Source of the DNA: Anaerolineae bacterium
Lineage (GTDB): Bacteria > Chloroflexota > Anaerolineae > UBA1429
Length of the DNA stretch: 64,000 nt
Direction of reading: 5' to 3'
NCBI GenBank assembly: GCA_963675785.1
Contig: OY776562.1
Span: forward strand, 3,104,001 to 3,168,000
A model generated the notes under the pieces. That model was given only the letters and a program-made list of their open reading frames with translations, did no database searches and was not told the origin of the DNA. The translations under genes were made by a program, and so were the position numbers. This document shows positions 2,661 through 33,369 of the stretch, one piece after another. Position 1 is the first letter of the stretch; every line of letters starts with the position of its first letter.

Positions 2661-2664
2661 AAGG

Positions 2665-2856: not shown

Positions 2857-2859
2857 GTT

Positions 2860-3213
2860 CTACTCCTCTAACCCTGCTGGGTGATCATCATCCCCATCAT
2901 TGCCCGATGAGAGCGGGCTGCCCTCTGTATTTCTGGTTAGGCTACCCACCAGCGTTGAGACACCAATGAGAATAAGAATGCCCGGCCAAAAGAGCCCGGT
3001 GTAGAAAAGGATAGCCAGGCCAACCAACCAAAAGAAAGACTGCCAACCATACCAACCTCGATCGGCGGCCAGGGCACCAGGTAAGCTCGAAGCGCCAATG
3101 ACCACTAGGATCCAGGGCCAAACGCTAACTGAATCAAACAGGAAGATGATTCCTAGGCCGATGAGGAATACGCCTCCGCTGATACCTGAGAAGGTTTTAG
3201 CTTTGTCATCCAT
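2860..3213 (-). CDS. 4-TM membrane protein, LiaF/LiaI-TM-like
   Basis: Start at MDDKAK with GGAGAG RBS; two repeats of the GxxLIGLG...WPxILxxIG pattern. Confidence 0.7.
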   Translation of the reverse strand: MDDKAKTFSGISGGVFLIGLGIIFLFDSVSVWPWILVVIGASSLPGALAADRGWYGWQSFFWLVGLAILFYTGLFWPGILILIGVSTLVGSLTRNTEGSPLSSGNDGDDDHPAGLEE

Positions 3214-3301
3214 GCTCTCCCCACCTTTTGTAACGTGTGCGAATCTTAACACGAGCGATTATGCTGGTCAAGGGCGCGTATAAAGCTTGGATCTATAAAA
3301 G

Positions 3302-4057: not shown

Positions 4058-5119
4058 CTATTCCTTCTCCGCGTCTTCGATGGTTTTGCGTGCCTTGCGC
4101 GAGATGCCATTCCATAGTGTGGTCAACCCCATGGCCTTGCGCATCTCTTTGATGGTGATATCTGCCTCTTCTGAGGTGCGCATGGTGCCCTCATAGATCA
4201 AGCGTTCCACCAGACCGTTCTGGCCAGCATAGTACTCGCGCCGCTCTCGGATAGGATCCAAGAAATTGTTGATGGCGACGACGAGTTTTTCTTTGACCTC
4301 GACATCTCCCACACGCCCCTCACGATAGCGTGCTTTGAGATCTTCAACCTCGGCCTTGTCGGGGTTAAAGACGTCGTGGTAAACAAAGACTGGGTTGCCC
4401 TCGACCGTTCCGGGGACGTCGGCGCTGATGCGGTTGGGGTCGGTGTACATGCTGAACACGCGTTTATGCACCATTTTGGCATCGTCGGATAGCATGATGG
4501 CATTGCCTAGGCTCTTGGACATCTTGGCCTGTCCATCTGTTCCTACCAATGTGGGGACGTCCCCCACCATGACCTCTGGGATGGGCAGTACATCGCCATA
4601 GAGATAATTGAATCGACGAGCGATCTCGCGTGTGATTTCGACATGGGCCACATTATCTTTGCCCACCGGCACGAGGTTGGCGCGAGGTGTGATGATATCA
4701 GCAGCCTGCAAAACTGGATATCCCACCAGGCCAAAGGGCAGAGTGTCTTCTTCAAAGTGGGCGGCTTTGGCCATTTCTTTGATGCTGGGCAGCCGCTGAA
4801 GCCTGGGCAGCGTTACCATCATTTCAAAGATCAGATTGATTTGATAGACGGCAGGAATGGCAGACTGCAAATAGATGGTGCTCTTTTCGGGATCGACGCC
4901 AACTGCTAGATAGTCGAGTACCATATCACGCACGTTTTTACCCAGCGTGGCAATATTTTCTTTTTCTGGCTTGGTTGTAAGGGTGTGCAGATCAGCCACG
5001 ATGAAAAAGCATTCATACTCATCTTGCAGGCGTACACGATTGGCCAAGCTTCCTACATAGTGTCCCAAGTGTAGCTTACCGGTCGGACGGTCTCCGGTAA
5101 GAATGCGTTTCCTCGTCAT
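4058..5119 (-). CDS. trpS: tryptophanyl-tRNA synthetase
   Basis: [15 protein letters not shown] (HIGH), YPVLQAADI and KMSKS motifs; start at MTRKR with GGGAGGGA RBS. Confidence 0.97.
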
Positions 5120-5134
5120 GGTTCCCTCCCTATA

Positions 5135-5377
5135 ACAAAAAACGTCTCGCCCCAAACTTCAGGGACGAGACGCAATGCTCGCGGTACCACCCCGTTTGAT
5201 TGCTCTATGCTAAAGAGCAACCCACTCGGCCAGCCAGTAACGCGACTGAGACGTCCGGTCATACTCTGTTCTGCCCGGCTGCTCATCGGCCCATTCACCC
5301 GGTACTCGCGGCTCCGTTCGCAGCACAGGGAGCTCTCTTACGCTGTTTGCCAGGCTACTATTCCGAATCAACGCATT
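5135..5377 (-). ncRNA. T-box riboswitch with Trp (UGG) specifier
   Basis: On the minus strand: AGTA, AGAGA and GCTG stem I motifs, specifier loop GAA-TGG-G (TGG at 5293-5291), T-box AAACGGGGTGGTACCGCG (5197-5180), then terminator GCGTCTCGTCCC...GGGGCGAGACG-TTTTTT. Confidence 0.93.
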
Positions 5378-5383
5378 GGCAAC

Positions 5384-15477: not shown

Positions 15478-16690
15478 ATTGGCAAATGAGACCTGGGCTA
15501 TCGTCAATGCTCGGGTTTATACGCCCAATCGCCTTGTTGCTCCCGATGGAGTGTTACTCATAAGGCAGGGCAAAATACTGGCTGTTGGGAGGGCGCAAGA
15601 GTGCGCCATTCCTGAGCATGCCGTAACCTACGATATGCGTGGTGCAATTGTCTGCCCCGGCTATGTGGATGTTCATGTCCACGGTGGCGCCGGGGCAGAT
15701 TGTACAGATGGCTCTGTTGAAGCGGTTAGAGCCATGGCTGCCCATTTATTGACCAAAGGTACGACTTCTTTTCTGCCAACGACTATGAGCGCTCCCTATG
15801 ATGCGCTTTGGCAGGCGTTCGACGCCATCTCTGAAGTTGCTGTGCGTCGTGGCGCAGCAGAATCGCGAGTGTTGGGCATTCACATGGAAGGCCCCATGTT
15901 CAGCCCTGCCCAGGCTGGAGCTCAAAACCCCGCCGTATTGCGTATGCCCACCCGCGGCGAGCTAGAGCGTTTGATTTCGTATGTTCCCCTCTTGAAACGG
16001 GTTGATCTGGCCCCTGAATTAGATGGCGCCCTCGATGTGGTTTCCTATCTTGCAGAGGCGGGCGTATTGGTGGCTGGCGCCCATTCGGATGCTTTGTACT
16101 TTCAGGTATGCCAGGCTATGGACGCCGGACTTTTGCATACTACGCATTTGTGGAGTGCCATGTCGACTGTGCGGCGCATTGGCCCCCAGCGTTATTCGGG
16201 CATGGTAGAGGCGTCTCTGGTTGAGGATGGATTGACTACCGAGATCATCGCTGATGGCTATCATCTACCTTCTTCGCTGATGAAACTGGCTTTCAAGTGC
16301 AAGGGATCTGAAAAACTCTGTGTGGTGAGCGACGCTATCCGTGCTGCCGGTATGCCTCCTGGCGTATACGATCTTGGTGGCATGGACGCCCTGGTAGAAT
16401 CTAATGCCGGTGTAGCCATGACAGTAGATAAAAAAGCTTTTGCCGGGTCAATTAGCAGCATATCTGAGTGCGTGCAGCATTTGGTCAATGGCGTGGGTTT
16501 TGCCCTGGGGGATGTGTTGCGCATGGCTACTTTGACACCTGCCCGTATACATGGTCTTGACGATACCGCTGGCTTGTTGGCCCCCGGACGTGTAGCCGAT
16601 TTCCTGGTGCTAGAGCCGGCAACACTAGAGCCCCGGGCCGTGTTTTTGGATGGCGTACTGGTGCATGGTGATGCAAGGCTATGGGACTAG
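15467..16690 (+). CDS. nagA: N-acetylglucosamine-6-phosphate deacetylase
   Basis: PGYVDVHVHG, GTTSFLPT, GIHMEGP, THLWSAM, IADGYH, VSDA. Confidence 0.88.
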   Translation: MSSRLANETWAIVNARVYTPNRLVAPDGVLLIRQGKILAVGRAQECAIPEHAVTYDMRGAIVCPGYVDVHVHGGAGADCTDGSVEAVRAMAAHLLTKGTTSFLPTTMSAPYDALWQAFDAISEVAVRRGAAESRVLGIHMEGPMFSPAQAGAQNPAVLRMPTRGELERLISYVPLLKRVDLAPELDGALDVVSYLAEAGVLVAGAHSDALYFQVCQAMDAGLLHTTHLWSAMSTVRRIGPQRYSGMVEASLVEDGLTTEIIADGYHLPSSLMKLAFKCKGSEKLCVVSDAIRAAGMPPGVYDLGGMDALVESNAGVAMTVDKKAFAGSISSISECVQHLVNGVGFALGDVLRMATLTPARIHGLDDTAGLLAPGRVADFLVLEPATLEPRAVFLDGVLVHGDARLWD

Positions 16691-17523
16691 TTTACCGCCT
16701 CGAAGATTATGCCAGCTACCATGCAGTGGTTGGTTCGGCTACCTATATCGATGTGAGCCGGCGTACCGATCCGGCGCGTATTCCCTTCGTGTGGGATAGG
16801 CTCAAAGATATCCTCGCAGCCTATGGTGCCCCTTGGGTGATCCAAATCTGGACCAAAGATCCTCACGGTGCCGCTCTGCTTGGCAAAACTGTCATTCAAG
16901 AAATGCTAGCCCAAGGGACGACTATCACTGCTCAGATTACAGCAACTGGCTTGGCGGGATCGGTCTGGGAACCGCGAGTGCCGTGTGATATTTCTTCTGG
17001 ATTGGACGGGTTAGCCGAATTGATCGGTGGCTATGAGCACATATGCTGGCGCTATGACCCCATCATTCCTTCGGCACACACTTTGACGGCATTTTCGAGC
17101 TTGGCGGAACGCATGGCTGCGCAAGGCATTCACCGTGGTGTGCTCAACTTTATTGCTCCTCCCGGACGCTATGTCCGTGTAGACCGCCGCATGACGCAGG
17201 TTCTGCCGGCTTGGCCCACTCTAGGGCAAGGTAATGAGGCGGAACAGGCGCGTATTGCCCGCGAGATCGTTGCTGTCGCGAGTGACCTGGGCATCGAGAT
17301 GGGTTGTTGTGCTGAATCAAGCGCGCTTTCGAGTCAGGTGCCGGGCTTGCGTGCTGCTTCCTGTGGCGATTACGCCTGGTTTGCGCAGCTTGCCCAAACG
17401 TATCCATCTCAAAACACCTATCAAGGCAGTCGTAAGGGCTGCGGTTGCTTACACTATTTTGATGTGGGTAGCTATGGTATGCGCAATCGGTGCTTCGGCT
17501 GCCTCTATTGTTATGCAGGATAA
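16681..17523 (+). CDS. DUF1848-like protein
   Basis: SRRTD.., WTKDP, WRYDPII, C-terminal RKGCGC...CFGCLYCYA. Confidence 0.75.
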   Translation: MGLVYRLEDYASYHAVVGSATYIDVSRRTDPARIPFVWDRLKDILAAYGAPWVIQIWTKDPHGAALLGKTVIQEMLAQGTTITAQITATGLAGSVWEPRVPCDISSGLDGLAELIGGYEHICWRYDPIIPSAHTLTAFSSLAERMAAQGIHRGVLNFIAPPGRYVRVDRRMTQVLPAWPTLGQGNEAEQARIAREIVAVASDLGIEMGCCAESSALSSQVPGLRAASCGDYAWFAQLAQTYPSQNTYQGSRKGCGCLHYFDVGSYGMRNRCFGCLYCYAG

Positions 17524-17555
17524 ATCGGGAAAAGATTTGGGAATACCCCTGTGCC

Positions 17556-17564
17556 TGCTATAAT
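17556..17564 (+). promoter_or_regulatory. extended -10 promoter element for glgP
   Basis: TGCTATAAT about 40 bp upstream of the ATG. Confidence 0.55.
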
Positions 17565-17601
17565 GGTTATGTCGTGCGCCATTCAAGCTTAGGAGCTGAC
17601 T

Positions 17602-20160
17602 ATGTTGCGCCCCCATCGCGTATATAATGTTGTCCCGTCTTTGCCGGCGTCGCTAGCTGCGCTGGAACCTCTTTCACGAAACCTATGGTGGTCATGGAAT
17701 CCCGACGCAATTGAGCTGTTCTTGCGACTGGATCGAGACCTCTGGGAACAATATAGACATAACCCCATTCGCTTGCTGGGAGCCGTCCGCCAGGAGAGAC
17801 TGGAGCATCTGGCTCAAGATGATGGCTTTATCGCTCATCTCGAGCGGGTTTGGGCTGCTTTTCAAGCGTATGTGGATAACAAAGATACATGGTATGCGAA
17901 CCATTGTCGCTCAGAAAATCTCTCGGTCGCCTATTTTTCCGCCGAGTTTGGCATTACGGAATGTGTTCCCAATTATTCGGGCGGACTTGGCATTCTTTCA
18001 GGAGACCACCTCAAATCGGCCAGTGACCTTGGCCTACCTCTGGTAGGCGTTGGCTTACTCTATCAACAAGGATACTTTCGCCAATATCTCAATGTAGATG
18101 GCTGGCAGCAAGAGTCCTATCCCATCAACGATTTCTATACCATGCCTATGTCACTTGTTCAGGGTGAGGACGGCGTACCTATTCATATCCAGGTCGATTA
18201 CCCCGGCAGAGCGGTGACAGCGCAGGTGTGGCTGGTCGAGGTTGGCCGAATCTCGCTTTACTTGTTGGATACCAACATCTCCGAGAACTCTGCCGATGAC
18301 CGCGGCATCACCAGTCAGCTCTATGGCGGCTATGATGATATGCGCATCCAGCAGGAGATTATGCTGGGTATTGGTGGAATACGCACGCTTTGGGCCATGG
18401 GGATGGAGCCGAATGTCTTTCATATGAACGAAGGTCATTCATCTTTCCTGGCACTAGAGCGAGTGCGGCGGCTGATCCAGGAAAAGGGGCTGGATTTCGA
18501 GGCAGCTCGACTTGCTACACGCGCCGGCAATGTGTTTACCACACACACACCTGTTCCGGCCGGTATTGACCTATTCCCTCCCAATATGATGGATCAGTAC
18601 TTTTCGTATTATTGGTCACAACTCGGTCTTGACCGCCAAGCGTTCCTGTATCTTGGACAGCGAGGCAACACGGGTGGCGACCGATTCTCTATGGCGGTGT
18701 TAGCGCTAGAGCTGGCCGACCACGTCAATGGCGTGAGCAAAATACACAGCCAGGTAGCGCGCGATATGTGGAAGGTGCTATGGCCGCAGACGCCCAAGCG
18801 CGAAGTGTCCATTAGCGCCATTACCAACGGCGTTCATGCTCCGAGTTGGGTTTCTCATGATATGGGCGATCTGTATCTGCGCTATCTTGGCCCGGGCTGG
18901 CGTGAACGTCCTTGGGACAAGTCGGTCTGGTTGAGGGTTGATTCCATTCCTGATGCCGAGCTGTGGCGAACCCATGAGCGGCGGCGTGAGCGGTTAGTTT
19001 CAACAGCGCGTGGGCGCTTGGTGGATCAACTGGTTAGCAAAGGGGCTTCTACGCAAGAAATTGGCGATGCGCGAGATGCTTTGGATCCCGAAGTGCTGAC
19101 CATTGGCTTTGCGCGGCGTTTTGCCACATACAAGCGGGCAACGTTGCTGTTCCGTGATCCAGAACGGCTTGCTCGCATTCTCAATGATCCTGAAAGACCC
19201 GTGCAGATTATCTTTGCGGGCAAGGCCCATCCGCATGATAACCCCGGCAAGGAACTCATCCGCCAGATTGTGCACTATTCGCGACAGCCCGAGTTTCAAG
19301 GACATGTGGTTTTTATTGAAAATTATGACATGAACCTGGCCCGCTATTTGTTGCAGGGTGTCGATATCTGGTTGAATACACCACGAAGTGGCCTGGAAGC
19401 TAGCGGCACCAGTGGTATGAAGGCTGCTATGAATGGTGCTTTGAATTGCAGCGCCTATGATGGCTGGTGGTGCGAGGGGTATTCTAACGGCGCAGGCTGG
19501 AGCATTGGGCGTGGTGAAAAGTATGATGATCCCAACTATGGTGATGAAGTTGAGGCGCGCGCGTTGTACGACATTCTAGAAAAGGATGTTGTGCCGCGAT
19601 TCTATAGCCGTGGGCACGACGGGCTGCCCCATAATTGGATTTCGATGATGAAGAGCTCGATTGGCTCGATTGCGCCCCAGTTCTCTTCCCATCGAATGGT
19701 GGAACAGTACTGCAGTGAGATGTACGAGCCAGCTTTTGAGAGGCATCACCAACTGGTCGAGAATGACTATCAAGTGGTCAAGGAATTGGCCTCTTGGGTG
19801 GGCAAGATCAAGGCACATTGGGGCGAACTGAGCGTGGTATCTGTCGAATCTTCCGCGGATGATAGCATGTCGGTGGGTGAAGACATTGAGATCAAGACAA
19901 CAATACGTCTTGGTGCTTTGGACCCCAAGGATATTCAGGTTCTTGTCTACCATGGCATTGTGGATGAAACTGGCACTTTGGGCGATTATGAGATCGCCGA
20001 TATGGATGGCGTGTGCGAGGTGGATGGAAGTCAGTGTGCCTATCGCGGCACTATATCCAATCACCATAGTGGAAGGCACGGTTATACTGTGTGCCTCAGG
20101 CCGCACCACCCCGAATATGGCGAGGTTTCATTGCCAGGCTACGTTTTGTGGTCTGATTAG
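17602..20160 (+). CDS. glgP: alpha-glucan (glycogen) phosphorylase
   Basis: YFSAEFG, YSGGLGILSGDHLKSASD, HMNEGH, GFARRFATYKR, EASGTSGMKA. Confidence 0.97.
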   Translation: MLRPHRVYNVVPSLPASLAALEPLSRNLWWSWNPDAIELFLRLDRDLWEQYRHNPIRLLGAVRQERLEHLAQDDGFIAHLERVWAAFQAYVDNKDTWYANHCRSENLSVAYFSAEFGITECVPNYSGGLGILSGDHLKSASDLGLPLVGVGLLYQQGYFRQYLNVDGWQQESYPINDFYTMPMSLVQGEDGVPIHIQVDYPGRAVTAQVWLVEVGRISLYLLDTNISENSADDRGITSQLYGGYDDMRIQQEIMLGIGGIRTLWAMGMEPNVFHMNEGHSSFLALERVRRLIQEKGLDFEAARLATRAGNVFTTHTPVPAGIDLFPPNMMDQYFSYYWSQLGLDRQAFLYLGQRGNTGGDRFSMAVLALELADHVNGVSKIHSQVARDMWKVLWPQTPKREVSISAITNGVHAPSWVSHDMGDLYLRYLGPGWRERPWDKSVWLRVDSIPDAELWRTHERRRERLVSTARGRLVDQLVSKGASTQEIGDARDALDPEVLTIGFARRFATYKRATLLFRDPERLARILNDPERPVQIIFAGKAHPHDNPGKELIRQIVHYSRQPEFQGHVVFIENYDMNLARYLLQGVDIWLNTPRSGLEASGTSGMKAAMNGALNCSAYDGWWCEGYSNGAGWSIGRGEKYDDPNYGDEVEARALYDILEKDVVPRFYSRGHDGLPHNWISMMKSSIGSIAPQFSSHRMVEQYCSEMYEPAFERHHQLVENDYQVVKELASWVGKIKAHWGELSVVSVESSADDSMSVGEDIEIKTTIRLGALDPKDIQVLVYHGIVDETGTLGDYEIADMDGVCEVDGSQCAYRGTISNHHSGRHGYTVCLRPHHPEYGEVSLPGYVLWSD

Positions 20161-20172
20161 ATTTCCGAATAG

Positions 20173-20276
20173 CTCTCCGAGTTATGTGGCCTGAGGCCAA
20201 TCCTTTGGGCGGGTATGGCGCATAACCGATGGGTGCGGGTGGAAACGCCCGCGCCTCCCGTGTTTGGAAAGGGGAG
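20173..20276 (+). ncRNA. Moco-class riboswitch lacking P3 (tungsten-cofactor-type variant)
   Basis: P1 CTCTCC/GGGGAG, CTCCGAG, P2 GTTATG/CATAAC enclosing CCTGAG...GTATGG, CGATGG, P4 with GGAAAC GNRA loop, GCCTCCCG-TGTT-TGGAAAGG 3' signature. Recognised by eye against the Moco RNA motif. Confidence 0.85.
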
Positions 20277-20294
20277 ACGTTTTCCTGCTCGTTC

Positions 20295-20333
20295 AGCGAG
20301 TAGGCGTCTTCTTGCGCCTGCTCGCTTTTTGTT
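20295..20333 (+). terminator. riboswitch-controlled intrinsic terminator
   Basis: 12-bp stem AGCGAGTAGGCG/CGCCTGCTCGCT followed by TTTTGTT, 19 bp before the ECF S-component start. Confidence 0.85.
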
Positions 20334-20351: not shown

Positions 20352-21710
20352 TTGACGGAAGAAAAACGTTACTATTTTACCACGCGGGACTTGCTTATTA
20401 TGGCCGCCATGGCTGGCCTGGGTGGTGTGGCTAGTACGGCAATCAATGCGCTTGGTGATGTGATGCAGGCAGCCTTGGGTTTTGCTGGCACTACGCAGTG
20501 GGCCGCCGGTCTTCACACAATCTTTTTGCTTCTTGTTGTGGGGCTGGTTCGTAAAGGCGGTGCAGCTACATTGGCCGGATTGCTCAAGGGGGCCGTTGAG
20601 CTGCTCAGTGGCAACACCCACGGCATTATTATTCTATTGGTTGATTTAGCAGCTGGATTGATCATCGATTTGGTTTTTGCCCTGGTACAGCAGCGCCAAA
20701 GCCTATTGGTTTATATACTGGCTGGTGCATTTTCGGCGGCCAGTAACGTCATTGTTTTTCAATTGTTTGCTCTGGCGCCGGAAGATGTCCTTGCAGCTGT
20801 CTGGCTGGTGGCCCTGGTTGCAGCGGTTTCGGGCGCACTGCTAGGCGGTTGGGTTGCATGGTTGCTGCTGGGTGTGCTTCACAAGAATGGTCTGGTTCGA
20901 GAGGAGCCGGTGCGTACCATGCGCGGCTGGCGCTATGCTGTGTTTCTAGGCGTTTTTGCGCTGATTCTCATTGGCGGGAGCTGGACCATGGTGGAATCCT
21001 TGGCTGGGCCGCCGGTGATCGATATTCGTGTGGATGGCGAGGTGGTCTACCAATTTTCGCCCGATGACGACAACCTACCTCTCATTGTCGAAGATGTCGA
21101 ACTGAACGGCATCAAACGTAGTGTAAGCGGCTATAAATTGGCCGAGGTCATTGCTTTGGCTGTCAGTGGTACGGAATATGGCTCGGCGCTAATCTCTGCC
21201 ACGGATGGCTATTCCTTTTTCATTACTGATCGCGAGATTGAGGAAAACACAGAGCTGCTGTTGGCAGTGAGCGGCGAGGGTGAGGACACCAGTTACGAGA
21301 TCGTCGGTGCCGAGAACTCGAAAGCCTGGGTGCGTAACGTAGCTACCATTGATCTGGCCGAACAAACGCTCATCGAGGTGTCGGGCTTGATTGGTCTGCC
21401 CTCACCCTACAATCCCGCTGACTGGCAATACGAGATGGACAGTGCCTATCTGGATGTGGGGTATGGCGAGCAAAAATACCAGGGAACTATTGCCGCCGAT
21501 GTGCTGACAGCCTGGGAACCTTCAACAGGCGCAGAATCGGCCGTATTTTACAGTGCGGATGAACAGGTTGAACTAAGCCTGGAAGAGATTGCCACGGATC
21601 GCAGCTTGCGCATTTGGTCGGTCAATGCTGCTGGTGGAACCAGTTTTGCTCTGGCCACTGAAGGTGGCGAGATATTGTTGACCGACGTCGAACGTATCGA
21701 GGTCAAATGA
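20352..21710 (+). CDS. ECF transporter S-component (YkoE-like) fused to two extracytoplasmic molybdopterin-binding-like domains
   Basis: N-terminal ~180 aa: FTTRDLLIMA, LVRKGGAA, about 6 TM. Then one TM and soluble repeats SGYKLAEVI..ATDGY..WVRNVATI and VSGLI..YQG..ADVL..DVERIEV. Confidence 0.8.
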   Translation: MTEEKRYYFTTRDLLIMAAMAGLGGVASTAINALGDVMQAALGFAGTTQWAAGLHTIFLLLVVGLVRKGGAATLAGLLKGAVELLSGNTHGIIILLVDLAAGLIIDLVFALVQQRQSLLVYILAGAFSAASNVIVFQLFALAPEDVLAAVWLVALVAAVSGALLGGWVAWLLLGVLHKNGLVREEPVRTMRGWRYAVFLGVFALILIGGSWTMVESLAGPPVIDIRVDGEVVYQFSPDDDNLPLIVEDVELNGIKRSVSGYKLAEVIALAVSGTEYGSALISATDGYSFFITDREIEENTELLLAVSGEGEDTSYEIVGAENSKAWVRNVATIDLAEQTLIEVSGLIGLPSPYNPADWQYEMDSAYLDVGYGEQKYQGTIAADVLTAWEPSTGAESAVFYSADEQVELSLEEIATDRSLRIWSVNAAGGTSFALATEGGEILLTDVERIEVK

Positions 21711-21713
21711 ACT

Positions 21714-23162
21714 GTGTCTGAGCCGATGGTGCGCATCGACCAGCTCTCTTTTCGCTATGCAGCTGGTGAAACGCTGGCCCTCGATCATGTTTCGCTGGCG
21801 GTCGACAAGGGCGAGTTTGTGGTGTTGACCGGACCAAGCGGCTGCGGCAAGTCGACGTTGGCACTAGCCATGGGCGGTTACCTGGCGCATCAATTCAAAG
21901 GAGAGTTCGAGGGCACTGTTGAGGTGGCCGACGTCGATACGCTCCGAGAGCCGCTTTATCAGGTGGCGGACGTGGTCGGTTTGGTGCAGCAGAACCCGGA
22001 GGATCAGTTTTGCACCTTGCGGGTGGACGATGAGGTGGCCTTTGGTCCAGAGAATCGTTGTGTAGAGCCACTGATGATTCGCCAACTTGAGCAGAATTCG
22101 TTGATGAGGGCTCAAGCTCAGCATCTTGAGGGTCGTCTGCTGGATTCGCTCTCTGGCGGTGAAAAGCAACGGGTGGCTCTGGCGTCTATGCTGGCTGGCA
22201 CGCCGCAATTGTTGATTTTGGACGAGCCCACATCCAGCCTCGACCCTCAGGCTACACAGGATGTGTTGGCAGTATTGGATAATCTTCGTCGCGAGCGTGG
22301 CCTGACTCTGATCGTCATCGAACACAAATTGGATGCCCTGATGCGCTTTAATCCGCGTATTGTGCGTATGGCCCAGGGGCACATCGAACAAGATCATTCT
22401 GTTTTTCAGCCAACTGTACCCGTAGTTCATGCACCCTCAATGGCAGGTAAGGTTGCTGTGGCACTAGAGGGCGTCTCCGTCACTCTAGAAGATCATCACG
22501 CACTCGATAACGTAACTGTAGATTTTCACTCTGGCCAGTTGACTGCTCTGATGGGAGCCAATGGTGCTGGCAAGACCACACTCTTGCGGGTCATCCGCGG
22601 TTTACAGCCTGTGCGGAGAGGTTGTGTTTGTGTGTTAGGTCAGGATGTTGCCAAGGATACTGTGTCAGCTCTAGCCGGGCGCGTGGGGTTTATGTTTCAG
22701 AATCCCGATCACCAGTTGCTAAGCGATACGGTGCAAGGTGACATGGCTTTTGGTCTATCTGCCCAGCAGGTCACCCAAGATGCACTTTATCATCAGCAAT
22801 TGCTTGAATTGGCTGGTCTTTGGGAGCTGCGCAATAGACACCCCTTTTCTCTGAGCTATGGGCAAAAGAGGCGTCTGAATCTGTCTTCACTGTTGGCGCA
22901 AAAACCGCAGATCATTCTGGTTGACGAACCGCTCATTGGGCAGGACCCTAACAACGCCCAGTATGTCATGGGGGTGCTCAGGGCCGCTGCGGATGAAGGC
23001 GTTTGTGTGATCGCGGCACTTCATGCCCCGGGGATGGTTCAGCGCTTTGCAGACAGGGTTGTGTTTTTGGCTCAGGGGCGTATCGATATCGATGCGGCAC
23101 CGGATGCTGCCTTTGCCGCATTGTCTTCCTCCGGGCGCAAAGCTTTTGCAGGTATGTTATGA
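21714..23162 (+). CDS. ECF transporter double ATPase (A-A' fusion)
   Basis: Two ABC domains: GPSGCGKST/QNPEDQ/LSGGEKQR and GANGAGKTT/QNPDHQ/LSYGQKRR. Confidence 0.93.
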   Translation: MSEPMVRIDQLSFRYAAGETLALDHVSLAVDKGEFVVLTGPSGCGKSTLALAMGGYLAHQFKGEFEGTVEVADVDTLREPLYQVADVVGLVQQNPEDQFCTLRVDDEVAFGPENRCVEPLMIRQLEQNSLMRAQAQHLEGRLLDSLSGGEKQRVALASMLAGTPQLLILDEPTSSLDPQATQDVLAVLDNLRRERGLTLIVIEHKLDALMRFNPRIVRMAQGHIEQDHSVFQPTVPVVHAPSMAGKVAVALEGVSVTLEDHHALDNVTVDFHSGQLTALMGANGAGKTTLLRVIRGLQPVRRGCVCVLGQDVAKDTVSALAGRVGFMFQNPDHQLLSDTVQGDMAFGLSAQQVTQDALYHQQLLELAGLWELRNRHPFSLSYGQKRRLNLSSLLAQKPQIILVDEPLIGQDPNNAQYVMGVLRAAADEGVCVIAALHAPGMVQRFADRVVFLAQGRIDIDAAPDAAFAALSSSGRKAFAGML

Positions 23163-23911
23163 CAGCCAGCATGAGCCGTCTCGGAGTGGTTGGGCGCATT
23201 CATCCCTTACCCAAATTTGCCTGGCTCCTGGCTGTTTCGGTGGCCGTGTTTGTGGTGGGCCAACCGGTGGTTATTTGGGCCATCGTCCTAGGGCTCGTAC
23301 TGGTGGGTTATCCTTATCTGGTCGGTAGGTCGCGTGCGTTCCGCCTGACTATATTCTCTACGTTGGGACTTTTTCTGCTGCAGGCGCTATTTTACCACCA
23401 GGGACGGGTGCTGTTCGATCTGTGGCCGGGAGAGGCGCAATGGTCGGTGACAGTAGACGGTCTGCTACGCGGACTGCGTGTATCGGGTCGCTTTCTCGCC
23501 ATTATACTGGCCAGCCAGGTGTTTGTAGGGTCGACAGACTCTAGCGAACTGGCCTACAGCCTGATGCAGGCTGGCGTTCCCTATCGATTTGGCTTTGCGC
23601 TTGTCTCAGCCCTGCGTATGACGCCTATGTTTCGCAGTGAGGGTCGTACAGTGTACGAAGCTCAACTTTGCCGAGGCGTGGCGCTGGATCGCGGTGGCTT
23701 GCGTGGCCTTTTGGTTAGGCTGCAGCGCTTTTTGTTGCCGCTGGTGGTATCTGCTCTCAGAAGGGTCGATAGCCTGTCCATCTCGATGGAAGGCCGACAC
23801 TTTGGGCGTTATCGAACCCGAACCTTTGCACAACCTTTGCATCACCACCGCAGAGACTACGCGGTCTGGGGGTTATTGATTTTTTTCATCGCCATCATCG
23901 TCGTCCTGTAG
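23159..23911 (+). CDS. ecfT: ECF transporter T-component (EcfT/CbiQ)
   Basis: HPLPK, ALRMTP, EAQLCRG and SMEGRHF (two XRX motifs); ATGA overlap with the ATPase stop. Confidence 0.92.
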   Translation: MTASMSRLGVVGRIHPLPKFAWLLAVSVAVFVVGQPVVIWAIVLGLVLVGYPYLVGRSRAFRLTIFSTLGLFLLQALFYHQGRVLFDLWPGEAQWSVTVDGLLRGLRVSGRFLAIILASQVFVGSTDSSELAYSLMQAGVPYRFGFALVSALRMTPMFRSEGRTVYEAQLCRGVALDRGGLRGLLVRLQRFLLPLVVSALRRVDSLSISMEGRHFGRYRTRTFAQPLHHHRRDYAVWGLLIFFIAIIVVL

Positions 23912-23921
23912 GTGGGCCAAT

Positions 23922-25844
23922 ATGTGGAACGAGTTTCTGTACAGTATCGCGACCTATCCCTACCTCTATGCACTGTTCACTGGCGTTATGCTCCTGTGGA
24001 TCACTGTAGGGCTACACGCCCTACGTCGTGTGCGGCAGGCGCCTGACGAGCGACCACGCCTCACCTTCAAAAAATTTGGCGCTGCATTCCAAGAAGCGTT
24101 GGTTCAACGGCGCATCTGGCGGAGGCCTCTGGCCGGTGCGATGCACCTCTGCCTGTTTGCCGCAGGGGTGCTCATTCTGGTGGCCTATATTATGACTCAC
24201 CATGTTGCCCCTCGTGGCGAGGCTTGGCAGGCCAGCCGCACTGCACATTTCATTGCTGATTTGGGCGTAATGCTAGGTTTTGTTGGACATATGCTGGCGG
24301 GCTGGCGACGTTTTATTCGCAAAGAGACCTCTCGCGCCTTTAGCGATGTGCTGTTGTGGGGCTTGGGCTTTGTGTTCATCATCGCCTATGGCCTGGCTAA
24401 TGCGTTACAGGTGGCCATCACCGATCCAAATTGGCAGCGTGCGGCCTTTTTGAGCCGCCCGATAGCTGGGCTTTTCTCAGGCATGGCGACTCTTACACTG
24501 CGCTCACTTTACGGGTTAGTTTGGGCTCTTGTCCACGGCTCTTTGTTCGTAGGCGTTTTGCTGGTACCCCTGACCAAGTGGCGCCACGTTTTGGCAATCG
24601 TAGTCAACCTTGCGCATGCGGACGATCTTCCGCCAGCAGTAGCTGTCTCCGAGGATCTGAATGGTGATGGGCCCTTTGGTCTGGGGCGAACGGATCAGCT
24701 CAGCAAGAAGCAACTCTACGAAACCTGGGCTTGCGTTCGTTGTGGGCGTTGTAGCACGGTCTGTCCGGCAACGATGACTGGCAAGATGCTTGATCCGCTC
24801 AAACTGATAGAGGCCGAGCTGGAAGCCCCAAGGATGGCCAGCTTACCCGACTTTATCGATCAGGAGGCACTTTGGCAGTGCAGCATGTGCCTGGCCTGCG
24901 CGGATGTATGCCCTGCGGATATTGCCCCCTGGCGCCATTTACTGGATATGCGTCGCGAGCGCGTGCTGGAGGCGGCCGAGTTTCCCCAAGAGCTTCAAGG
25001 CGTTTTTCGCGGCATAGAGCGGCGCGGCAACCCGTGGGGCACGGCTACCAACAAGAGCGAAATCGCTCGTGAAGCAGGTGTGCGCCTATTATCCAAAGGC
25101 GATTCTTGCGATGTGTTGCTGTGGATGGGCTGTATGGTGGCGGTGGACCCACTGGCACAGCAGGCCTGGCGGGCTATGGCGCAGTTGTTGGCAGCGGCCG
25201 ACGTCGATGTGGCTTGCCTGGGCGATGCCGAGCCCTGCTGCGGCGATGCAGCACGCCGTCTAGGCAATGAGTACATCTGGCAGCAACAGGTGGAGACCGT
25301 GAGTGATGCCATGCATGATATTCATGTGGGACGGGTTGTCTCAGTTTGCCCACATTGCGCTAACACTTTGGGCAACGAGTATCCGCAGGGACTTTGGCAG
25401 GGCGTGTCTCACGCTCTTGAAGAATTGAGCTGTCTGGCCCAGGAGGGGCGTATCGTCCCCGAGGCACATCAGGTCAAGCCCTGTCGTGTGGTTTACCATG
25501 ATCCTTGCTATTTGGCGCGCGGCCTTGACGTCATTGATTCTGTGCGCCGACTGCTTGTTGCCACGCCAGGTTGCGAACTAGTCGAGCCTGCGCACAAGGG
25601 CAAGGATGTGTGGTGTTGCGGTGCGGGCGGCGGCCAGATGTGGCTTCAAGAGGATGACGGTGCGGCTTTGGGCCAGTCACTCTTTGATGAACTGGCCAAT
25701 ACCAAGGCCGAACTAATACTCTCTGCATGTCCTTATTGTGATACGACACTGCAATCTGAGTTTGGCAATACGAACGATGTAAGTGATGTGGTGATTTTTA
25801 TCGCCAATCGATGGCGTGCTAGTGACAGGAGTGATCAAGGGTGA
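23922..25844 (+). CDS. membrane-bound HdrD/GlpC/FadF-like Fe-S oxidoreductase
   Basis: N-terminal ~6 TM with several His; CVRCGRCSTVCP and CSMCLACADVCP (2x 4Fe-4S); two CCG domains (CCG..CPHC; HDPC..CCG..CPYC). Confidence 0.9.
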   Translation: MWNEFLYSIATYPYLYALFTGVMLLWITVGLHALRRVRQAPDERPRLTFKKFGAAFQEALVQRRIWRRPLAGAMHLCLFAAGVLILVAYIMTHHVAPRGEAWQASRTAHFIADLGVMLGFVGHMLAGWRRFIRKETSRAFSDVLLWGLGFVFIIAYGLANALQVAITDPNWQRAAFLSRPIAGLFSGMATLTLRSLYGLVWALVHGSLFVGVLLVPLTKWRHVLAIVVNLAHADDLPPAVAVSEDLNGDGPFGLGRTDQLSKKQLYETWACVRCGRCSTVCPATMTGKMLDPLKLIEAELEAPRMASLPDFIDQEALWQCSMCLACADVCPADIAPWRHLLDMRRERVLEAAEFPQELQGVFRGIERRGNPWGTATNKSEIAREAGVRLLSKGDSCDVLLWMGCMVAVDPLAQQAWRAMAQLLAAADVDVACLGDAEPCCGDAARRLGNEYIWQQQVETVSDAMHDIHVGRVVSVCPHCANTLGNEYPQGLWQGVSHALEELSCLAQEGRIVPEAHQVKPCRVVYHDPCYLARGLDVIDSVRRLLVATPGCELVEPAHKGKDVWCCGAGGGQMWLQEDDGAALGQSLFDELANTKAELILSACPYCDTTLQSEFGNTNDVSDVVIFIANRWRASDRSDQG

Positions 25845-26689
25845 GCAAGCGATGGACGTGGCTCCTCGTCGGGGCCATTGGTGTTGTAATCGGTATCGGT
25901 TTGGCCAGCTGGAAGACCTTTCCCATCGAGGATATGATTGCACGAACTACTTGCGCTGAATGTCATGATGTGCACGGGGCTCTCGAAATTGCCCAAGTTC
26001 CAGCTCAGAGCCAGGTCTGGATCTTGGGCGATGTGCCGGAATCCACTTATTTCTTTGTAAATGATCTTTTTCCTCTTGCAGACGAGACGGAGGGTACGAG
26101 TATTTCACTCATCGACTTGTTGGCCGATTATGGGGTGACGGATTGGGAAAAGGTCTCAATTGAATCCCTCGATGGCGGACTGGTAACGCTGGAGCGCCAG
26201 TATGTCACGGAGAATTCCCTTCTTGTGCCCTATGTCGATGGCATTCGCTTCAAGGATGTCAATCTGCACGAATCCACCTGGCTCAAGGGTGTACGCTTTA
26301 TCACTGTACAGGGCAGCGAGACGCCCCTGCTTCTCGGAGATACGCAGACTTCGTTAGGGCGTTTGCTGATGGGTGATCGCACAGCCGTTATAGCCGAAGC
26401 CAGTGATGCGCTATATTCCAGTCCTGTGGACGGACAGATTTACCAGGGTAACTATGCGCACATTTACACTGGCGCGTCGCTTGTTTCACTGTTGACGGCT
26501 TACCCAGAGGCAACTACTTTTGCCTGCACCAGCCAGGATAGCGAGACGGTATCATACACACGTGAGGAACTACAAGAGGCTGTCATTGCGCCGGTATCTG
26601 GTTTGCCTTCGCTGGTGCTGCCGCAGTATGGTCAGGGGAGCTGGGTCATTGGGATTGAGAGCATTGTGCCAGAGGATGGGGAGAGTTGA
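25841..26689 (+). CDS. membrane-anchored protein with CxxCH heme motif and two molybdopterin-binding-like domains
   Basis: N-terminal TM, CAECH at 25952-25966, then SLIDLL..SLDGG..WLKGVRFITV and YTGASLVSLL..SQD..PSLVLP..WVIGIESI. Confidence 0.7.
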   Translation: MSKRWTWLLVGAIGVVIGIGLASWKTFPIEDMIARTTCAECHDVHGALEIAQVPAQSQVWILGDVPESTYFFVNDLFPLADETEGTSISLIDLLADYGVTDWEKVSIESLDGGLVTLERQYVTENSLLVPYVDGIRFKDVNLHESTWLKGVRFITVQGSETPLLLGDTQTSLGRLLMGDRTAVIAEASDALYSSPVDGQIYQGNYAHIYTGASLVSLLTAYPEATTFACTSQDSETVSYTREELQEAVIAPVSGLPSLVLPQYGQGSWVIGIESIVPEDGES

Positions 26690-26690
26690 T

Positions 26691-27824
26691 ATGTTGCGAG
26701 TGAAGAGATTGGGGGCATTGCCAAGTGCGCTACTGGCGATAGCCCTAGTTGCGGGTTGTTCGCCCAGGTGGGAGATTGGACTGACCATTGATGGGGATGT
26801 ACGTTCACCGCTTACTGGCCAGCAATGGAGCACGGCACTAGAAAGTTATCCGGATGAATGCGTTGAAGATAGTGTTCCCCTGGAACGGCTTTTATCCATG
26901 GCTTCTGTTCCGGCGGTAGAGTCAGTAAGCGTAGACGACCAATCATGGTATTGGGCCGATGTGTATGACGATGCCTGGGTAGAAAAGGGCGGTACGCTGG
27001 TCATCGCTGGTGAAAGCATAGAGACAAAAGATATTAGCATCGTTTTGCCGACACTTGATGCTTCGGTAACAGTTGAGCTGATAGATATTGCTCCCACAAT
27101 TGCTGGCGCGTTGGGAGTTCGTTCGCCGGAGGATACTGAGGGCCGTGCTGTAGCAGCTTTTGACGCCGAACATGTCGTCCATATTTTTTTGGATGGCTTT
27201 GGCTATGAGAACTATCAATCGGTTGTAGGTACGCGCACTACATCCTTTCTAGACAGCCTGGGCGCTCCGCGTATTGCCCGAACAGTTTACCCTAGTGCGA
27301 CCAAGGCCTCGACGGCCGCGATGATTACCGGCGCTTCGCCCACGGTGAATGGTGTTTCTTCTGGTGAACTGCGCACCACCGAAAGCGAGACGATCTTTCA
27401 GGTTCTGACTGAGGCAGGGCTTTCTAGTGTGGCCGTGGAAGGTTCATCTTTGGCTTTCAATCTGGTCTCGACAGAGATCATTGTCTCGGGTGACCGCGAC
27501 GATGACGGCTATTCGGACGACAATACTTATGAGAATGCCCTCGAAGTGATGAACGAGGGATTGCCCGATTTCCTCTGGGTGCATTTTCATGGAATCGACG
27601 ATGCTGGGCACACGTACGGTCCGTTAGCTGACGAGACGCTGGCTATGATGACACGCGTGGATGGCTATGTTTCTGATATCGTACAGCGATTACCCGAGGG
27701 AACTCTGGTGATCATTTGCGCCGATCATGGAATGCACGATGTGGTAGAAGATGGCCGTCTGGGGAACCACGGTTCCCTCTTGTCTCAGGATATGTATATT
27801 CCCTTCTGGACGATTCAACTCTGA
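26691..27824 (+). CDS. lipoprotein of the alkaline phosphatase superfamily (nucleotide pyrophosphatase/phosphodiesterase-like)
   Basis: Lipobox LVAGC; metal-ligand motifs FLDGFG, YPSAT (Thr nucleophile), DDAGH, ADHG, GNHG. Confidence 0.85.
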   Translation: MLRVKRLGALPSALLAIALVAGCSPRWEIGLTIDGDVRSPLTGQQWSTALESYPDECVEDSVPLERLLSMASVPAVESVSVDDQSWYWADVYDDAWVEKGGTLVIAGESIETKDISIVLPTLDASVTVELIDIAPTIAGALGVRSPEDTEGRAVAAFDAEHVVHIFLDGFGYENYQSVVGTRTTSFLDSLGAPRIARTVYPSATKASTAAMITGASPTVNGVSSGELRTTESETIFQVLTEAGLSSVAVEGSSLAFNLVSTEIIVSGDRDDDGYSDDNTYENALEVMNEGLPDFLWVHFHGIDDAGHTYGPLADETLAMMTRVDGYVSDIVQRLPEGTLVIICADHGMHDVVEDGRLGNHGSLLSQDMYIPFWTIQL

Positions 27825-27832
27825 GTATAATG

Positions 27833-27877
27833 AAAGGGCGGGGAAGAGATTGGCCTCTTCCCCGCCCTTTTTTTTAT
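27833..27877. terminator. intrinsic terminator between the two convergent riboswitch-controlled units
   Basis: AAAGGGCGGGGAAGAG-ATTGGC-CTCTTCCCCGCCCTTT followed by a long T-tract. Confidence 0.9.
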
Positions 27878-28353
27878 TCGACGACTTCGATACTCGTGAG
27901 TTTGTATAGCCAGCCATCGGCTGGTAGGTTGGGTATTACAACGCGAATAGGGGCGGTCTTGGTGTCGTCAGTGGTATAGACGCCATCCCTCTTCAAAGCG
28001 ATGATAGCCTGATCAAGATCCGAGATATTGACCTCCTTGGCATAGCCATCAGAGGCGGTGAGCAAGAGGCTGACGGCATTTTCACTCATGCCGGCTTCTT
28101 CCAAAATAGCCATCAGGTCGGGGCCTTCCCATGTGTTGGTCTCATTTTCGCCTTGCGACTTGCGCATGAGGACATTTTCGAGCACTACCTGATCCCGCTC
28201 AGTGAGATCCTGGTATGAGAGCGTAAGAGGCGTTTCTACGGCTCCAGTGATTTCTAGGTTCCAATCAACTTTGGGGGCACCATTACCGCAGCCTGTGGCA
28301 ACCAGCATGACGATGACAATAGCAACTACCATGGTAAGCGAGCGTTTTCTCAT
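27874..28353 (-). CDS. lipoprotein with a molybdopterin-binding (sulfite oxidase/MsrP-fold) domain lacking the Mo-ligating Cys
   Basis: Start MRKRSL with AAAGGA RBS; lipobox VATGC; WNLEITGAVETPLTLSYQDL, TWEG..L, ASDGY, PIRVVIP, WLYKLTSIEV. No Cys in the mature domain. Confidence 0.85.
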   Translation of the reverse strand: MRKRSLTMVVAIVIVMLVATGCGNGAPKVDWNLEITGAVETPLTLSYQDLTERDQVVLENVLMRKSQGENETNTWEGPDLMAILEEAGMSENAVSLLLTASDGYAKEVNISDLDQAIIALKRDGVYTTDDTKTAPIRVVIPNLPADGWLYKLTSIEVVE

Positions 28354-28448
28354 TTTGATCCTTTCGATATAGGAAGAATGCTCGCTCATGTCCGCCGTCG
28401 TGTTTGTACACAACAACACACAGCACGATTTTCGTGCTGCGATTGCGG

Positions 28449-28574
28449 TTCTCCTTTCCAAACACGGGCGGCATGAGCGTTTCCACTCAGACCGTTCGCC
28501 GGGCAATTGTGGTTGCCTGGCTGCGATCGCAGACCCTAGAGTTTTCTGTTCCGTAGGCCGTGCGATTCGGAGAA
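28449..28574 (-). ncRNA. Moco riboswitch with P3 stem (molybdenum-cofactor type)
   Basis: On the minus strand: P1 TTCTCC/GGAGAA, P2 ATCGCA/TGCGAT enclosing CCTACGG...TAGGG, P3 GCCAGGCAA/TTGCCCGGC (28521-28498), P4 TGAGT-GGAAAC-GCTCA, GCCGCCCG-TGTT-TGGAAAGGAG. Confidence 0.85.
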
Positions 28575-28593
28575 CAGTCTATTCACTAGGGCT

Positions 28594-31437: not shown

Positions 31438-33369
31438 TTACTTTTTGATACTTGTTTCCATGCTGCGAACGGTCAAGTAGGCAAGGAGGATCAAGAGGAG
31501 GGTAGCCCCAACAGCCAGGATATAGAGGTATGTTTGGTTCGTAGAAACGACCGAGGATTCGAATGTGAGCTTTTCACCCCAGGCCAGCAACTCTGAGGTG
31601 CTTTGGTCGGGCAGATCGACGTAAAATCGCCAATAGCTTGACGTCTGCGCCGTTTGCCAAGCGGATTTCTCGTCTGCCAGAACCGCAGCCAGTAATTGTG
31701 CTTCGGCTGTGGCGCTTGCAGAGGAGATGTTCTCTGTTTTAACCTCAATTTCTCGCCATTCAGCATAGTTTGTGGCTATTTCCCATGCTTCTGCCAACGC
31801 TACCGTGCTGATCTCCTCAGTAAATCCAAAAGAGGAGAGCAACCCCTGCTCCGTTGAAAAAGTCATGGCGCTTTCTGTAGGAAAGGCTGTTGTTAACGTT
31901 TGAACAATCAAAGTGGTGGGGACGGGCATCTTTGCCAGAGCCCTTTGGTTCAGTTCGGCGAGCTCATCAATGGAAGCATATGTCTCTGTCACAGTCATGA
32001 TTAGCGAAGATTCGGGCGAAATATCGATTGTGATGCCATCGACTCCCGTCAATATACTAGCCAGTGAAGTAAGCTCGGCGTGTGTTTGTTCTATCGTGGG
32101 TTCGTAAGGATCAAAATCCAAAACGATCTGCCGATAGGATTCTGTGGTCAGTACATCTACGCCCACGGAGCGAAACGGCGGTGCATATTCCAAGAGCTGG
32201 GCATAGTCGTTTTCGTCCAATAACTCTTGACTTTCTTCAATAGCTCGGTTTGTCTCTCCCTGGTTGGCAAGTTGAGCCAGCCATTCCAAATAGAGAGTTC
32301 TGGTTTCTTCTTCATCCAAGGCAAGGCCACCGAGATCTTGCGCGTATTCTAAATAGTGTAGAGCAGAAACTGGATCACCGTCTTCAGAAAGCTTGACGGC
32401 GATGCGATAGTAAATTTCGGCCAGAGAGGCATCTACGTCAAGCGAAGTATCGGCAGTTTTGGCTTGCTCGAGTTGATCTGCTGCAATCAGTAAATAGTTA
32501 AGGCTTTCGGCATTCACAGTGCTAGCTTTTTCTAACCATATATTGACCAACATGATTCTGGCGCTACTGTCCTGAGGATTGTTGTCGATGACGGTCTGCA
32601 ATTCTCCGGTCAGGCGATCCGTCCAATTCTCATCCTCAATGCCCAGATTTTCTGTTGCTTGTGTGATCTCCGATAGGAGGGCAGCTGTCGCCACATGATC
32701 TTGTTGTTCTTCAGCTGTACGCAACGAGGTCCATATTGCGGGAACCAGCATCACAACATGATGTGCAGGCAAGGCCTTTTCTTCGTATGACCAGAAAAAC
32801 TCTTTGCCGTCCAAGGCTTGGCCGTGTGGGAACATGGTGAAAAAGGCTTCGTCTGTGGCAATGGCACCATAATTCACACGTACCGAGGCACTGGCTGGGG
32901 TTCCCCAGTGCGACAAAAGGTCAGTTTGCGATTGCCAGTCAAGGATGATGGCGTTTTCGATGCCATAACTAGAGCGCATCCGTAAGGTTGTCTCGCCAGC
33001 AACCAGGCCGATAGTCCAAGTTTGGTTTTCACTTGCTGAAACTGCCGTTTGGTTCGCCGTGAGTTGCCGTGTTGGCTGAATGGCGCTCTCGGACTCGTAG
33101 TCAGGCAAGTACAATGTCACCGCTGTCAGGCTCTCGCTATCCAGAAGGTATTCCTGGGTGCAAACCACCTCGTTGACGCCGATCTCAACTTCTTGGATGT
33201 AGGCTTTTAACGTGACGCCAGAGGGCAAGTTGGCGGGCAATAGGGGCATGTCCTCGATAATGGCGATCGACGATTCGGCGGCAACAGATTGGGGCAGCAC
33301 AAATGCTGGCAACATAAATGCAGCCAACAAAATGATCATGGCGATTGCAAAACGAGGCGTATTTTTCAT
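31438..33369 (-). CDS. secreted, C-terminally anchored hypothetical protein with TPR-like helical region
   Basis: N-terminal signal peptide, acidic body, central Ala/Leu/Tyr helical repeats, C-terminal TM. Confidence 0.7.
   Translation of the reverse strand: MKNTPRFAIAMIILLAAFMLPAFVLPQSVAAESSIAIIEDMPLLPANLPSGVTLKAYIQEVEIGVNEVVCTQEYLLDSESLTAVTLYLPDYESESAIQPTRQLTANQTAVSASENQTWTIGLVAGETTLRMRSSYGIENAIILDWQSQTDLLSHWGTPASASVRVNYGAIATDEAFFTMFPHGQALDGKEFFWSYEEKALPAHHVVMLVPAIWTSLRTAEEQQDHVATAALLSEITQATENLGIEDENWTDRLTGELQTVIDNNPQDSSARIMLVNIWLEKASTVNAESLNYLLIAADQLEQAKTADTSLDVDASLAEIYYRIAVKLSEDGDPVSALHYLEYAQDLGGLALDEEETRTLYLEWLAQLANQGETNRAIEESQELLDENDYAQLLEYAPPFRSVGVDVLTTESYRQIVLDFDPYEPTIEQTHAELTSLASILTGVDGITIDISPESSLIMTVTETYASIDELAELNQRALAKMPVPTTLIVQTLTTAFPTESAMTFSTEQGLLSSFGFTEEISTVALAEAWEIATNYAEWREIEVKTENISSASATAEAQLLAAVLADEKSAWQTAQTSSYWRFYVDLPDQSTSELLAWGEKLTFESSVVSTNQTYLYILAVGATLLLILLAYLTVRSMETSIKK

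Follow-up and report, generated by a model that had tools for sequence, protein, structure and literature searches.

The closest described systems to the locus analyzed here are the energy-coupling factor (ECF) transporter YkoEDC of Bacillus subtilis, the pterin-binding protein PruR, the sulfite oxidase family and the regulon of the RF01055 riboswitch. ECF transporters are said to need no binding protein. In textbook accounts, all prokaryotes with molybdenum (Mo) or tungsten (W) enzymes synthesize the pterin cofactor of these enzymes on their own, the free cofactor being too unstable to share. Here, we analyze a stretch of 64,000 nucleotides from an Anaerolineae bacterium, referred to as the window (NCBI GenBank assembly GCA_963675785.1, contig OY776562.1, positions 3,104,001 to 3,168,000, forward strand). 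The open reading frame (ORF) at 20352..21710 on the plus strand of the window is probably the substrate-capture (S) subunit of a dedicated group I ECF importer, with fused, outward-facing domains of the sulfite oxidase (SUOX) fold. We favor, at a probability of roughly 0.65, the reading that this dedicated ECF system supplies the cell with molybdopterin cofactor to which W or Mo is probably already bound.

As far as the available text of PMC5037267 describes YkoEDC, it shares with the locus the family PF09819, the six-helix S fold, a dedicated EcfA/A'/T module in the operon and one glutamate of the substrate pocket. However, YkoE is a stand-alone protein of ~20 kDa, whereas the fusion adds a seventh helix and two outward domains, and its control element is a riboswitch for the molybdenum or tungsten cofactor (Moco/Tuco). 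PruR (7kom, 7kou, 7kp2, 7rkb), like the fused domains, is extracytoplasmic and has a SUOX fold that lacks Cys and is truncated to ~115-140 residues. In what is available of its description, PruR is a soluble signaling partner of the cyclase/phosphodiesterase DcpA (GGDEF/EAL type), whereas the fusion domains are duplicated, tethered to the membrane and found without pruR-dcpA context. The sulfite oxidase family (SorA, SoxC, YedY/MsrP; PF00174) has the fold of both fused domains, which differ in being ~115 residues long compared to ~170 in the Pfam model and in having neither the dimerization domain nor the Mo-ligand Cys. Finally, the locus resembles members of the RF01055 regulon in carrying a full-length aptamer above threshold together with a terminator. 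The accessible parts of PMC2408646 list cofactor synthesis, molybdate/tungstate ABC transport and cofactor-using enzymes as regulon genes. An ECF importer is not named in the accessible accounts of the regulon (PMC2408646, PMC3766115), and the regulon survey PMC3766115, to the extent accessible, has no Moco category under coenzyme uptake. A full-text literature search, whose coverage excludes about 1.7 million PubMed Central (PMC) articles and the subscription journals, returned no description of a microbial importer of Moco, ECF or other. The core of the system is an ordinary group I ECF transporter; what is new is the proposed class of substrate, together with the capture domains in fusion and the accessory proteins.

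The fused S-component and its tail domains

The protein encoded at 20352..21710 consists of the following parts, with residue numbers counted from the TTG start:

20352..20906, plus strand: ECF S-component core of the YkoE type (residues 1-185); PF09819, structural match to 5edl, profile match
20925..20999, plus strand: predicted seventh transmembrane (TM) helix (residues 192-216), with a cytoplasmic loop rich in lysine and arginine (K/R) before it; hydropathy and model helix
21012..21359, plus strand: D1 (residues 221-336), modeled Cys-less, truncated SUOX/PruR fold; PruR 7kom and profile-profile comparison (hhalign)
21360..21707, plus strand: D2 (residues 337-452), diverged repeat of D1; SoxC 2xts and hhalign against D1

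The frame encodes 452 amino acids without any Cys. The database copy of the protein starts at Met17 (436 amino acids), but the TTG start is supported by the conservation of residues ahead of Met17 in homologues, among which T11, R12, and D13 are invariant or almost so. Residues 12-129 match the Pfam family PF09819 (E 4e-16, 59.7 bits, cut-off 25.2), and a HMMER profile built from 59 homologues finds YkoE (5edl) among solved chains with an E of 1.7e-14. We built an AlphaFold2 model from an alignment of the same number of homologues, chosen out of 120 listed of 596 matches; it has a mean predicted local distance difference test score (pLDDT) of 85.5 and shows seven helices followed by two beta-rich domains. 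Residues 8-185 of the model superpose on 5edl with Z 20.5 and a root-mean-square deviation (rmsd) of 2.5 over 176 residues, using VIA-align on Foldseek candidates. The S-components ThiT, FolT, PanT, BioY, and RibU match the S core at Z 9-12, in line with the six-helix S-component fold.

Hydropathy analysis revealed six hydrophobic stretches and then an extra peak at 194-219, where the model places the helix 192-216. To orient the protein, we tallied K/R per loop by hand on the sequence, using the helices of the model. Ten K/R fall in the N-terminus and in loops 67-70, 112-117, and 176-193, and none in loops 43-46, 87-92, and 141-143. Since K/R cluster on the side of the N-terminus, the positive-inside rule places the tail beyond the seventh helix outside the cell. 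This tail (residues 216-452) is acidic, with 44 aspartate or glutamate residues versus 12 K/R. An earlier note, made from the letters of this DNA, had described the protein as a YkoE-like S-component with an extra TM helix and an acidic, Cys-less tail that is extracytoplasmic, not cytoplasmic. PF09819 and the match to 5edl, the hydropathy peak with its model helix, the residue counts and the positive-inside topology agree with each part of this description. The 120 homologues listed are all 436-517 amino acids long, which makes the fusion the rule in this family. Candidate split-gene forms with only the tail (P0121, P0123, P0128, P0129, P0130, and P0135) start inside the fifth or sixth TM helix and were rejected as truncated records.

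The two tail domains of the model resemble molybdopterin-binding proteins and PruR. D1 matches PruR 7kom best (Z 13.4, rmsd 3.0, 114 residues; 7kou, 7rkb, and 7kos at Z 12.4-12.6), whereas D2 is closest to Moco domains (SoxC 2xts Z 12.1, SorA 2ca4 Z 11.9, YedY Z 10.9). Each of the two resembles SorA, SoxC, YedY, and sulfite oxidase at Z about 11-12, with a Foldseek probability of 1.00. Neither domain contains the Mo-ligand Cys of the sulfite oxidase family. The motifs D285-G-Y287 and K324-A-W326-V-R328 are invariant in D1; both are gone from D2. Judged without superposition, D-G-Y and the conserved Trp of D1 recall the Asn-x-Tyr and Trp between which PruR, in the available account, sandwiches its pterin. 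Profile-profile comparison aligns D1 with D2 at 98.4% probability (E 7.6e-15, 112 columns), although BLASTP between the tail halves is not significant (E 0.093). D1 also appears homologous to the neighboring PF00174-positive lipoprotein by profile comparison (98.0%, hhalign), and BLASTP of the tail against this lipoprotein and against the CxxCH protein of the operon returned nothing significant. Precomputed PF00174 matches are present in 74 of the 120 listed homologues. Thus, according to the model and the profiles, D1 and D2 are homologous, Cys-less, outward-facing SUOX-fold domains. The SO/MsrP-like fold and the two repeats which the earlier note had proposed for the tail were recovered by the model with VIA-align and Foldseek and by the profile comparison, respectively.

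The S pocket deviates from that of YkoE. In the portion of PMC5037267 that is available, the thiamine contacts of YkoE are Trp49, Glu77, Gln95, Asp131, and Tyr46; the chain index of 5edl is offset by 2 from this numbering and all five residue types agree. In the HMMER alignment, the equivalent positions of the fusion are His55, Glu83, Ala101, Gln137, and Ala52, so that only the Glu, which in YkoE binds the aminopyrimidine ring, is kept (1/5). All five positions are invariant or nearly so within the fusion family. The kept Glu is compatible with a pterin substrate, without proving it, because a pterin also contains a 2-aminopyrimidine ring. These data bear on the idea that the transporter imports another heterocycle, either thiamine or hydroxymethylpyrimidine, as YkoE does, or one of the small pterins other than Moco that PruR binds. 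The S core does match thiamine-binding YkoE best, both by sequence and by structure, and D1 has its closest fold match in PruR, for which the accessible text gives a preference for tetrahydromonapterin. Nevertheless, four of the five contact residues are replaced and pruR-dcpA context is missing. Moreover, we found no thiamine pyrophosphate (TPP) or tetrahydrofolate (THF) riboswitch in the window, where RF01055 is the only riboswitch family. We therefore regard import of such a heterocycle as distinctly improbable.

Riboswitches and cofactor genes

The leader of the S gene and that of a convergent lipoprotein gene contain the following elements:

20163..20290, plus strand: Moco/Tuco riboswitch aptamer without P3; RF01055, 73 bits versus a gathering score of 36, E 1e-15
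20295..20326, plus strand: terminator-like hairpin; 13-pair stem with 8 GC pairs, then TTTTGTTGTG
28436..28584, minus strand: second Moco riboswitch aptamer, with P3; RF01055, 60 bits; precedes the gene of a SUOX-like lipoprotein

According to Rfam, the first aptamer spans the full model (1-135) with 15 P3 positions deleted. It lies 62 nucleotides (nt) upstream of the S-gene start codon on the same strand, and is followed by the hairpin with its T run, the ribosome-binding site AGAGGA and the TTG start. The lipoprotein leader has a comparable layout, with a terminator-like hairpin at 28441-28419 and a promoter-like site at 28622-28594. A scan of species representatives gave 138 relatives of the S gene among 173 candidate stretches, from which 80 loci were kept; all are from Chloroflexota metagenome-assembled genomes, labeled Anaerolineae for the most part. 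Of 18 related loci, Rfam places RF01055 ahead of the S gene in 16, with L005 and L018 negative. An RNA model of our own, built from those 16 and the two window copies, is positive at 73 of the 77 loci with at least 250 nt of upstream sequence, and at 57/61 of the loci outside the model. L041, where the RNA match overlaps the tblastn start by 2 nt, was counted by hand. L005, L016, L018, and L015 were missed, the last with its RNA 3.4 kb upstream.

The P3 insert is absent from 16 of the 18 aligned copies. In the accessible text of PMC2408646, 58 of 176 RNAs of this type have no P3, a form that tracks with use of the tungsten cofactor, and the P3-less aptamer thus fits the three AOR genes of the genome analyzed here. 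The same source, in its accessible part, places two P3-less RNAs ahead of 'putative sulphite oxidase' genes of S. wolfei, which may be lipoproteins of the present kind. The genome holds only three RF01055 copies, and each precedes either the S operon or a gene for a Cys-less SUOX-like lipoprotein. The third copy (C1:851663-852233, outside the window; 73.9 bits) is followed by a 182-codon frame for such a lipoprotein, which has ASDGY and SSAWAKEV motifs resembling those of D1.

We searched the genome, a single contig of 3.2 Mb rated 94.8% complete, for the synthesis genes. Hidden Markov model (HMM) searches of the genome did not find MoaC, MoaE, MoeA_N, or the MoaA C-domain, while the same searches were positive in 11 of 14 control genomes. 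The only PF00994 protein in the genome is CinA, and neither MogA/MoaB nor TupA was found. Besides the AOR genes, the genome contains a full-length DmsA/YnfE-like enzyme and a MobA-like protein. A relative from the same family (G075) carries one block with Pfam matches to a MogA/MoaB-like protein, two MoeA, MoaC, and a TupA-like binding protein with its permease, and the genes flanking this block are syntenic with 2105-2109.5 kb of the genome analyzed here. A tblastn search of the block ORFs against this genome gave no matches except a generic ABC ATPase; the ORFs of the corresponding block in another relative of the family (G150) had no match here either. Among seven genomes of the family, ModA was found in none and WtpA in one, which is not this genome. 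Three PBP_like_2 matches were discarded as oxyanion-binding candidates, two being tandem PstS and one weakly PstS-like. The strongest PF00174 protein of the genome (110 bits) is a 213-amino-acid lipoprotein outside the window (C1:1011750-1012391) with several Cys in the mature part, and may either truly bind Moco or serve as a further capture protein. The earlier note had assigned the tail domains to a labile cofactor, and this assignment gains support from the upstream Moco/Tuco riboswitch and from a genome that has Mo/W-pterin enzymes without detectable synthesis of their cofactor.

In a sample of 201 genomes of the class, the full-length fusion is present in 12. MoaC is missing from 6/12 carriers versus 15/189 non-carriers, MoeA_N from 4/12 versus 10/189, and MoaC and MoeA are both missing from 4/12 carriers, belonging to four families, versus 3 or 4 of 189. 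For the joint loss, Fisher's p is about 2e-4 to 5e-4, which makes the association look stronger than it is, as related genomes are not independent. The five other carriers without MoaC have 6-10 AOR genes each. MoaC and MoeA are present, and the fusion absent, in all five sampled genomes of the same family.

These patterns weigh on two further explanations. In the first, tungstate or molybdate is the imported substrate, with the SUOX-like domains as modules that bind or concentrate the oxyanion. ECF metal transporters exist. Riboswitches for Moco commonly control molybdate/tungstate transporters, according to the accessible text of PMC2408646 and PMC3766115, and the six of 12 carriers that keep MoaC and MoeA could use an oxyanion. 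In the genome analyzed here, however, an oxyanion would be unusable, given the absence of MoeA_N, MogA/MoaB, and MoaA/C/E. In addition, the S subunit is of the heterocycle-binding YkoE type and not of the CbiM/NikM type, the SUOX fold is a pterin-binding fold, and the nucleotide phosphodiesterase of the operon has no role in oxyanion uptake. Oxyanion import thus retains only a slim chance of being correct. In the second, the import concerns a precursor that lacks metal, either metal-free molybdopterin or cyclic pyranopterin monophosphate (cPMP), which the cell would then complete. No intermediate of the pathway is more stable than cPMP, and the carriers G126 and G162 are without MoaC but keep MoeA. 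By contrast, MoeA_N is absent together with MoaC here and in three carriers of other families, and this genome does not have MoaE either. With MoaE and MoeA_N missing, the precursor would be neither sulfurated nor metallated by known enzymes, which makes this explanation unlikely. Import of the finished cofactor, already loaded with metal, fits better with a genome from which MoeA, MogA and the TupA-like gene have been lost while MobA is retained.

Neighboring genes and the proposed import route

Downstream of the S gene lie the other genes of the operon and, in convergent orientation, the lipoprotein gene. Counts for each gene were taken only over loci that extend far enough downstream:

21714..23162, plus strand: fused EcfA-A' ATPase; TIGR04520, 330.8 bits, two ABC_tran domains; 62/62 loci
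23159..23911, plus strand: EcfT (CbiQ family); PF02361, E 3.4e-22; 56/57 loci
23922..25844, plus strand: HdrD/TfrB-like membrane protein with two 4Fe-4S motifs and two CCG domains; PF02754, E 3e-26, and Fer4; 7/45 loci
25841..26689, plus strand: membrane-anchored CxxCH protein with two Cys-less SUOX-fold domains in the model; 47/49 loci
26685..27824, plus strand: lipoprotein with an NPP/alkaline-phosphatase-type phosphodiesterase C-terminal to a domain of unknown fold; PF01663, E 2.8e-18; 37/45 loci
27832..27871: strong hairpin between the convergent units; 17-pair stem with 10 GC pairs, then a T run
27874..28353, minus strand: SUOX-like lipoprotein, 159 amino acids from the Met before the lipobox; PF00174, 52.6 bits; 41/43 loci

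The start of EcfT was set at the ATG overlapping the stop of the ATPase gene. Presence of the HdrD/TfrB-like gene within the operon is limited to this genome and its nearest relatives. In the 282-amino-acid CxxCH protein, which no curated family covers with its homologues, C38, C41, and H42 are invariant in 39 sequences. Its AlphaFold2 model (pLDDT 88) was built from 39 of 47 homologues; L002, L012, L023, L060, and L074, which have odd ends, as well as L025 and L045, were dropped. In a search independent of Foldseek, residues 52-159 match SoxC (Z 12.6) and residues 160-280 match SorT (Z 12.4), with the next unrelated structural matches below Z 7. Many homologues (L003, L015, L056, and others) have two CxxCH motifs close together, whereas the window copy has one. 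The phosphodiesterase lipoprotein conserves the metal and nucleophile motifs, and profile comparison of its N-terminal domain shows no likeness to the SUOX-like domains. In the SUOX-like lipoprotein the lipobox Cys is the sole conserved Cys. Several copies of this lipoprotein gene occur at some loci; L006, L023, L075, and L079 have two minus-strand riboswitch copies and up to four of the genes in tandem. Genes for a DUF1848 protein and a DUF3417/glycogen-phosphorylase-like protein (16681-20160, plus strand) precede the operon, a position that this pair otherwise occupies in the nearest relatives alone (3 and 6 of 80 loci).

The CxxCH protein raises the question of whether the locus encodes a redox enzyme. 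According to this explanation, a surface enzyme that uses the cofactor would be made up of the outward-facing SUOX-fold domains together with the CxxCH and HdrD-like proteins, and the ECF genes would only be co-regulated with it. SUOX enzymes partnered with a c-type heme are known, namely SorAB and SoxCD, which are among the fold matches; the CxxCH motif is invariant, and the genome contains a gene for cytochrome c assembly. However, no domain retains the Mo-ligand Cys, the HdrD-like gene occurs in just 7 of 45 loci, and in each of the 120 listed homologues the domains share one polypeptide with a transporter subunit. We therefore consider a surface redox enzyme very improbable.

Under the favored reading, import of the cofactor by the ECF system, cofactor released by other cells would be caught by the Cys-less SUOX-fold domains, i.e., D1, D2, the two of the CxxCH protein, and the lipoproteins. 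The NPP-type phosphodiesterase may trim the dinucleotide forms, molybdopterin guanine dinucleotide (MGD) and molybdopterin cytosine dinucleotide (MCD), to the mononucleotide-free pterin form, and the CxxCH protein, together with the HdrD-like membrane protein in close relatives, may keep the cofactor reduced. The S pocket would then take over the cofactor, and EcfAA'T would drive its import. As proposed in the earlier note, the tail domains may also protect the cofactor and pass it to this pocket, and the seventh helix may uncouple them from toppling. Inside the cell, the AORs could use it directly, whereas the MobA-like enzyme could rebuild the guanine dinucleotide form for the DmsA-like enzyme. 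When the cofactor is abundant, its binding to the leader RNA would stop transcription at the hairpin. The fullest version of this proposal is that the finished W/Mo pterin cofactor is treated as a vitamin by a surface processing line of capture, trimming, reduction by a heme c protein and ECF import, which lets lineages run 3-10 tungsten enzymes after losing the whole cofactor pathway and the tungstate transporter; we consider the odds for this version to be about even.

Several observations count against import of the complete cofactor. The free cofactor is labile, and it would have to persist outside cells in anaerobic habitats. Six of the 12 carriers retain MoaC and MoeA, so the fusion is not confined to auxotrophs, and in one carrier (G190) moaC lies 5 kb from the fusion gene. 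The absence of the synthesis genes was determined by HMM and tblastn searches in a genome of 94.8% completeness. Regarding the tail domains, PF00174 falls short of its cut-off of 24 on the ORF 20352..21710 (11.9 bits, E 0.17), with the match confined to D2, and HMMER profiles of D1 and D2 gave no SUOX or PruR match among all solved chains. Furthermore, the pterins bound by PruR are small, and according to its authors, in the accessible text of PMC11194511, the cleft of PruR is not long enough for the whole Moco.

If salvage of the cofactor is true, metabolic reconstructions of anaerobic communities would change, and the absence of moa genes from a genome could no longer be read as a lack of Mo/W enzyme activity. 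The pterin cofactor would be added to those that are cross-fed, implying that communities share a cofactor thought to be too labile for this. Furthermore, with capture domains fused to an S subunit that topples, how the two work together becomes directly testable.

Elsewhere in the window, five frames of 130-192 amino acids at 565-3252 match no Pfam family at E 1e-5, and neither does a 643-amino-acid frame (31438-33369, minus strand), which begins with a signal-like stretch and has a C-terminal helix. A T-box leader (RF00230, 115 bits; 5158-5380, minus strand) lies directly upstream of a gene for a class I tRNA synthetase of the Trp/Tyr type (4058-5155, minus strand).

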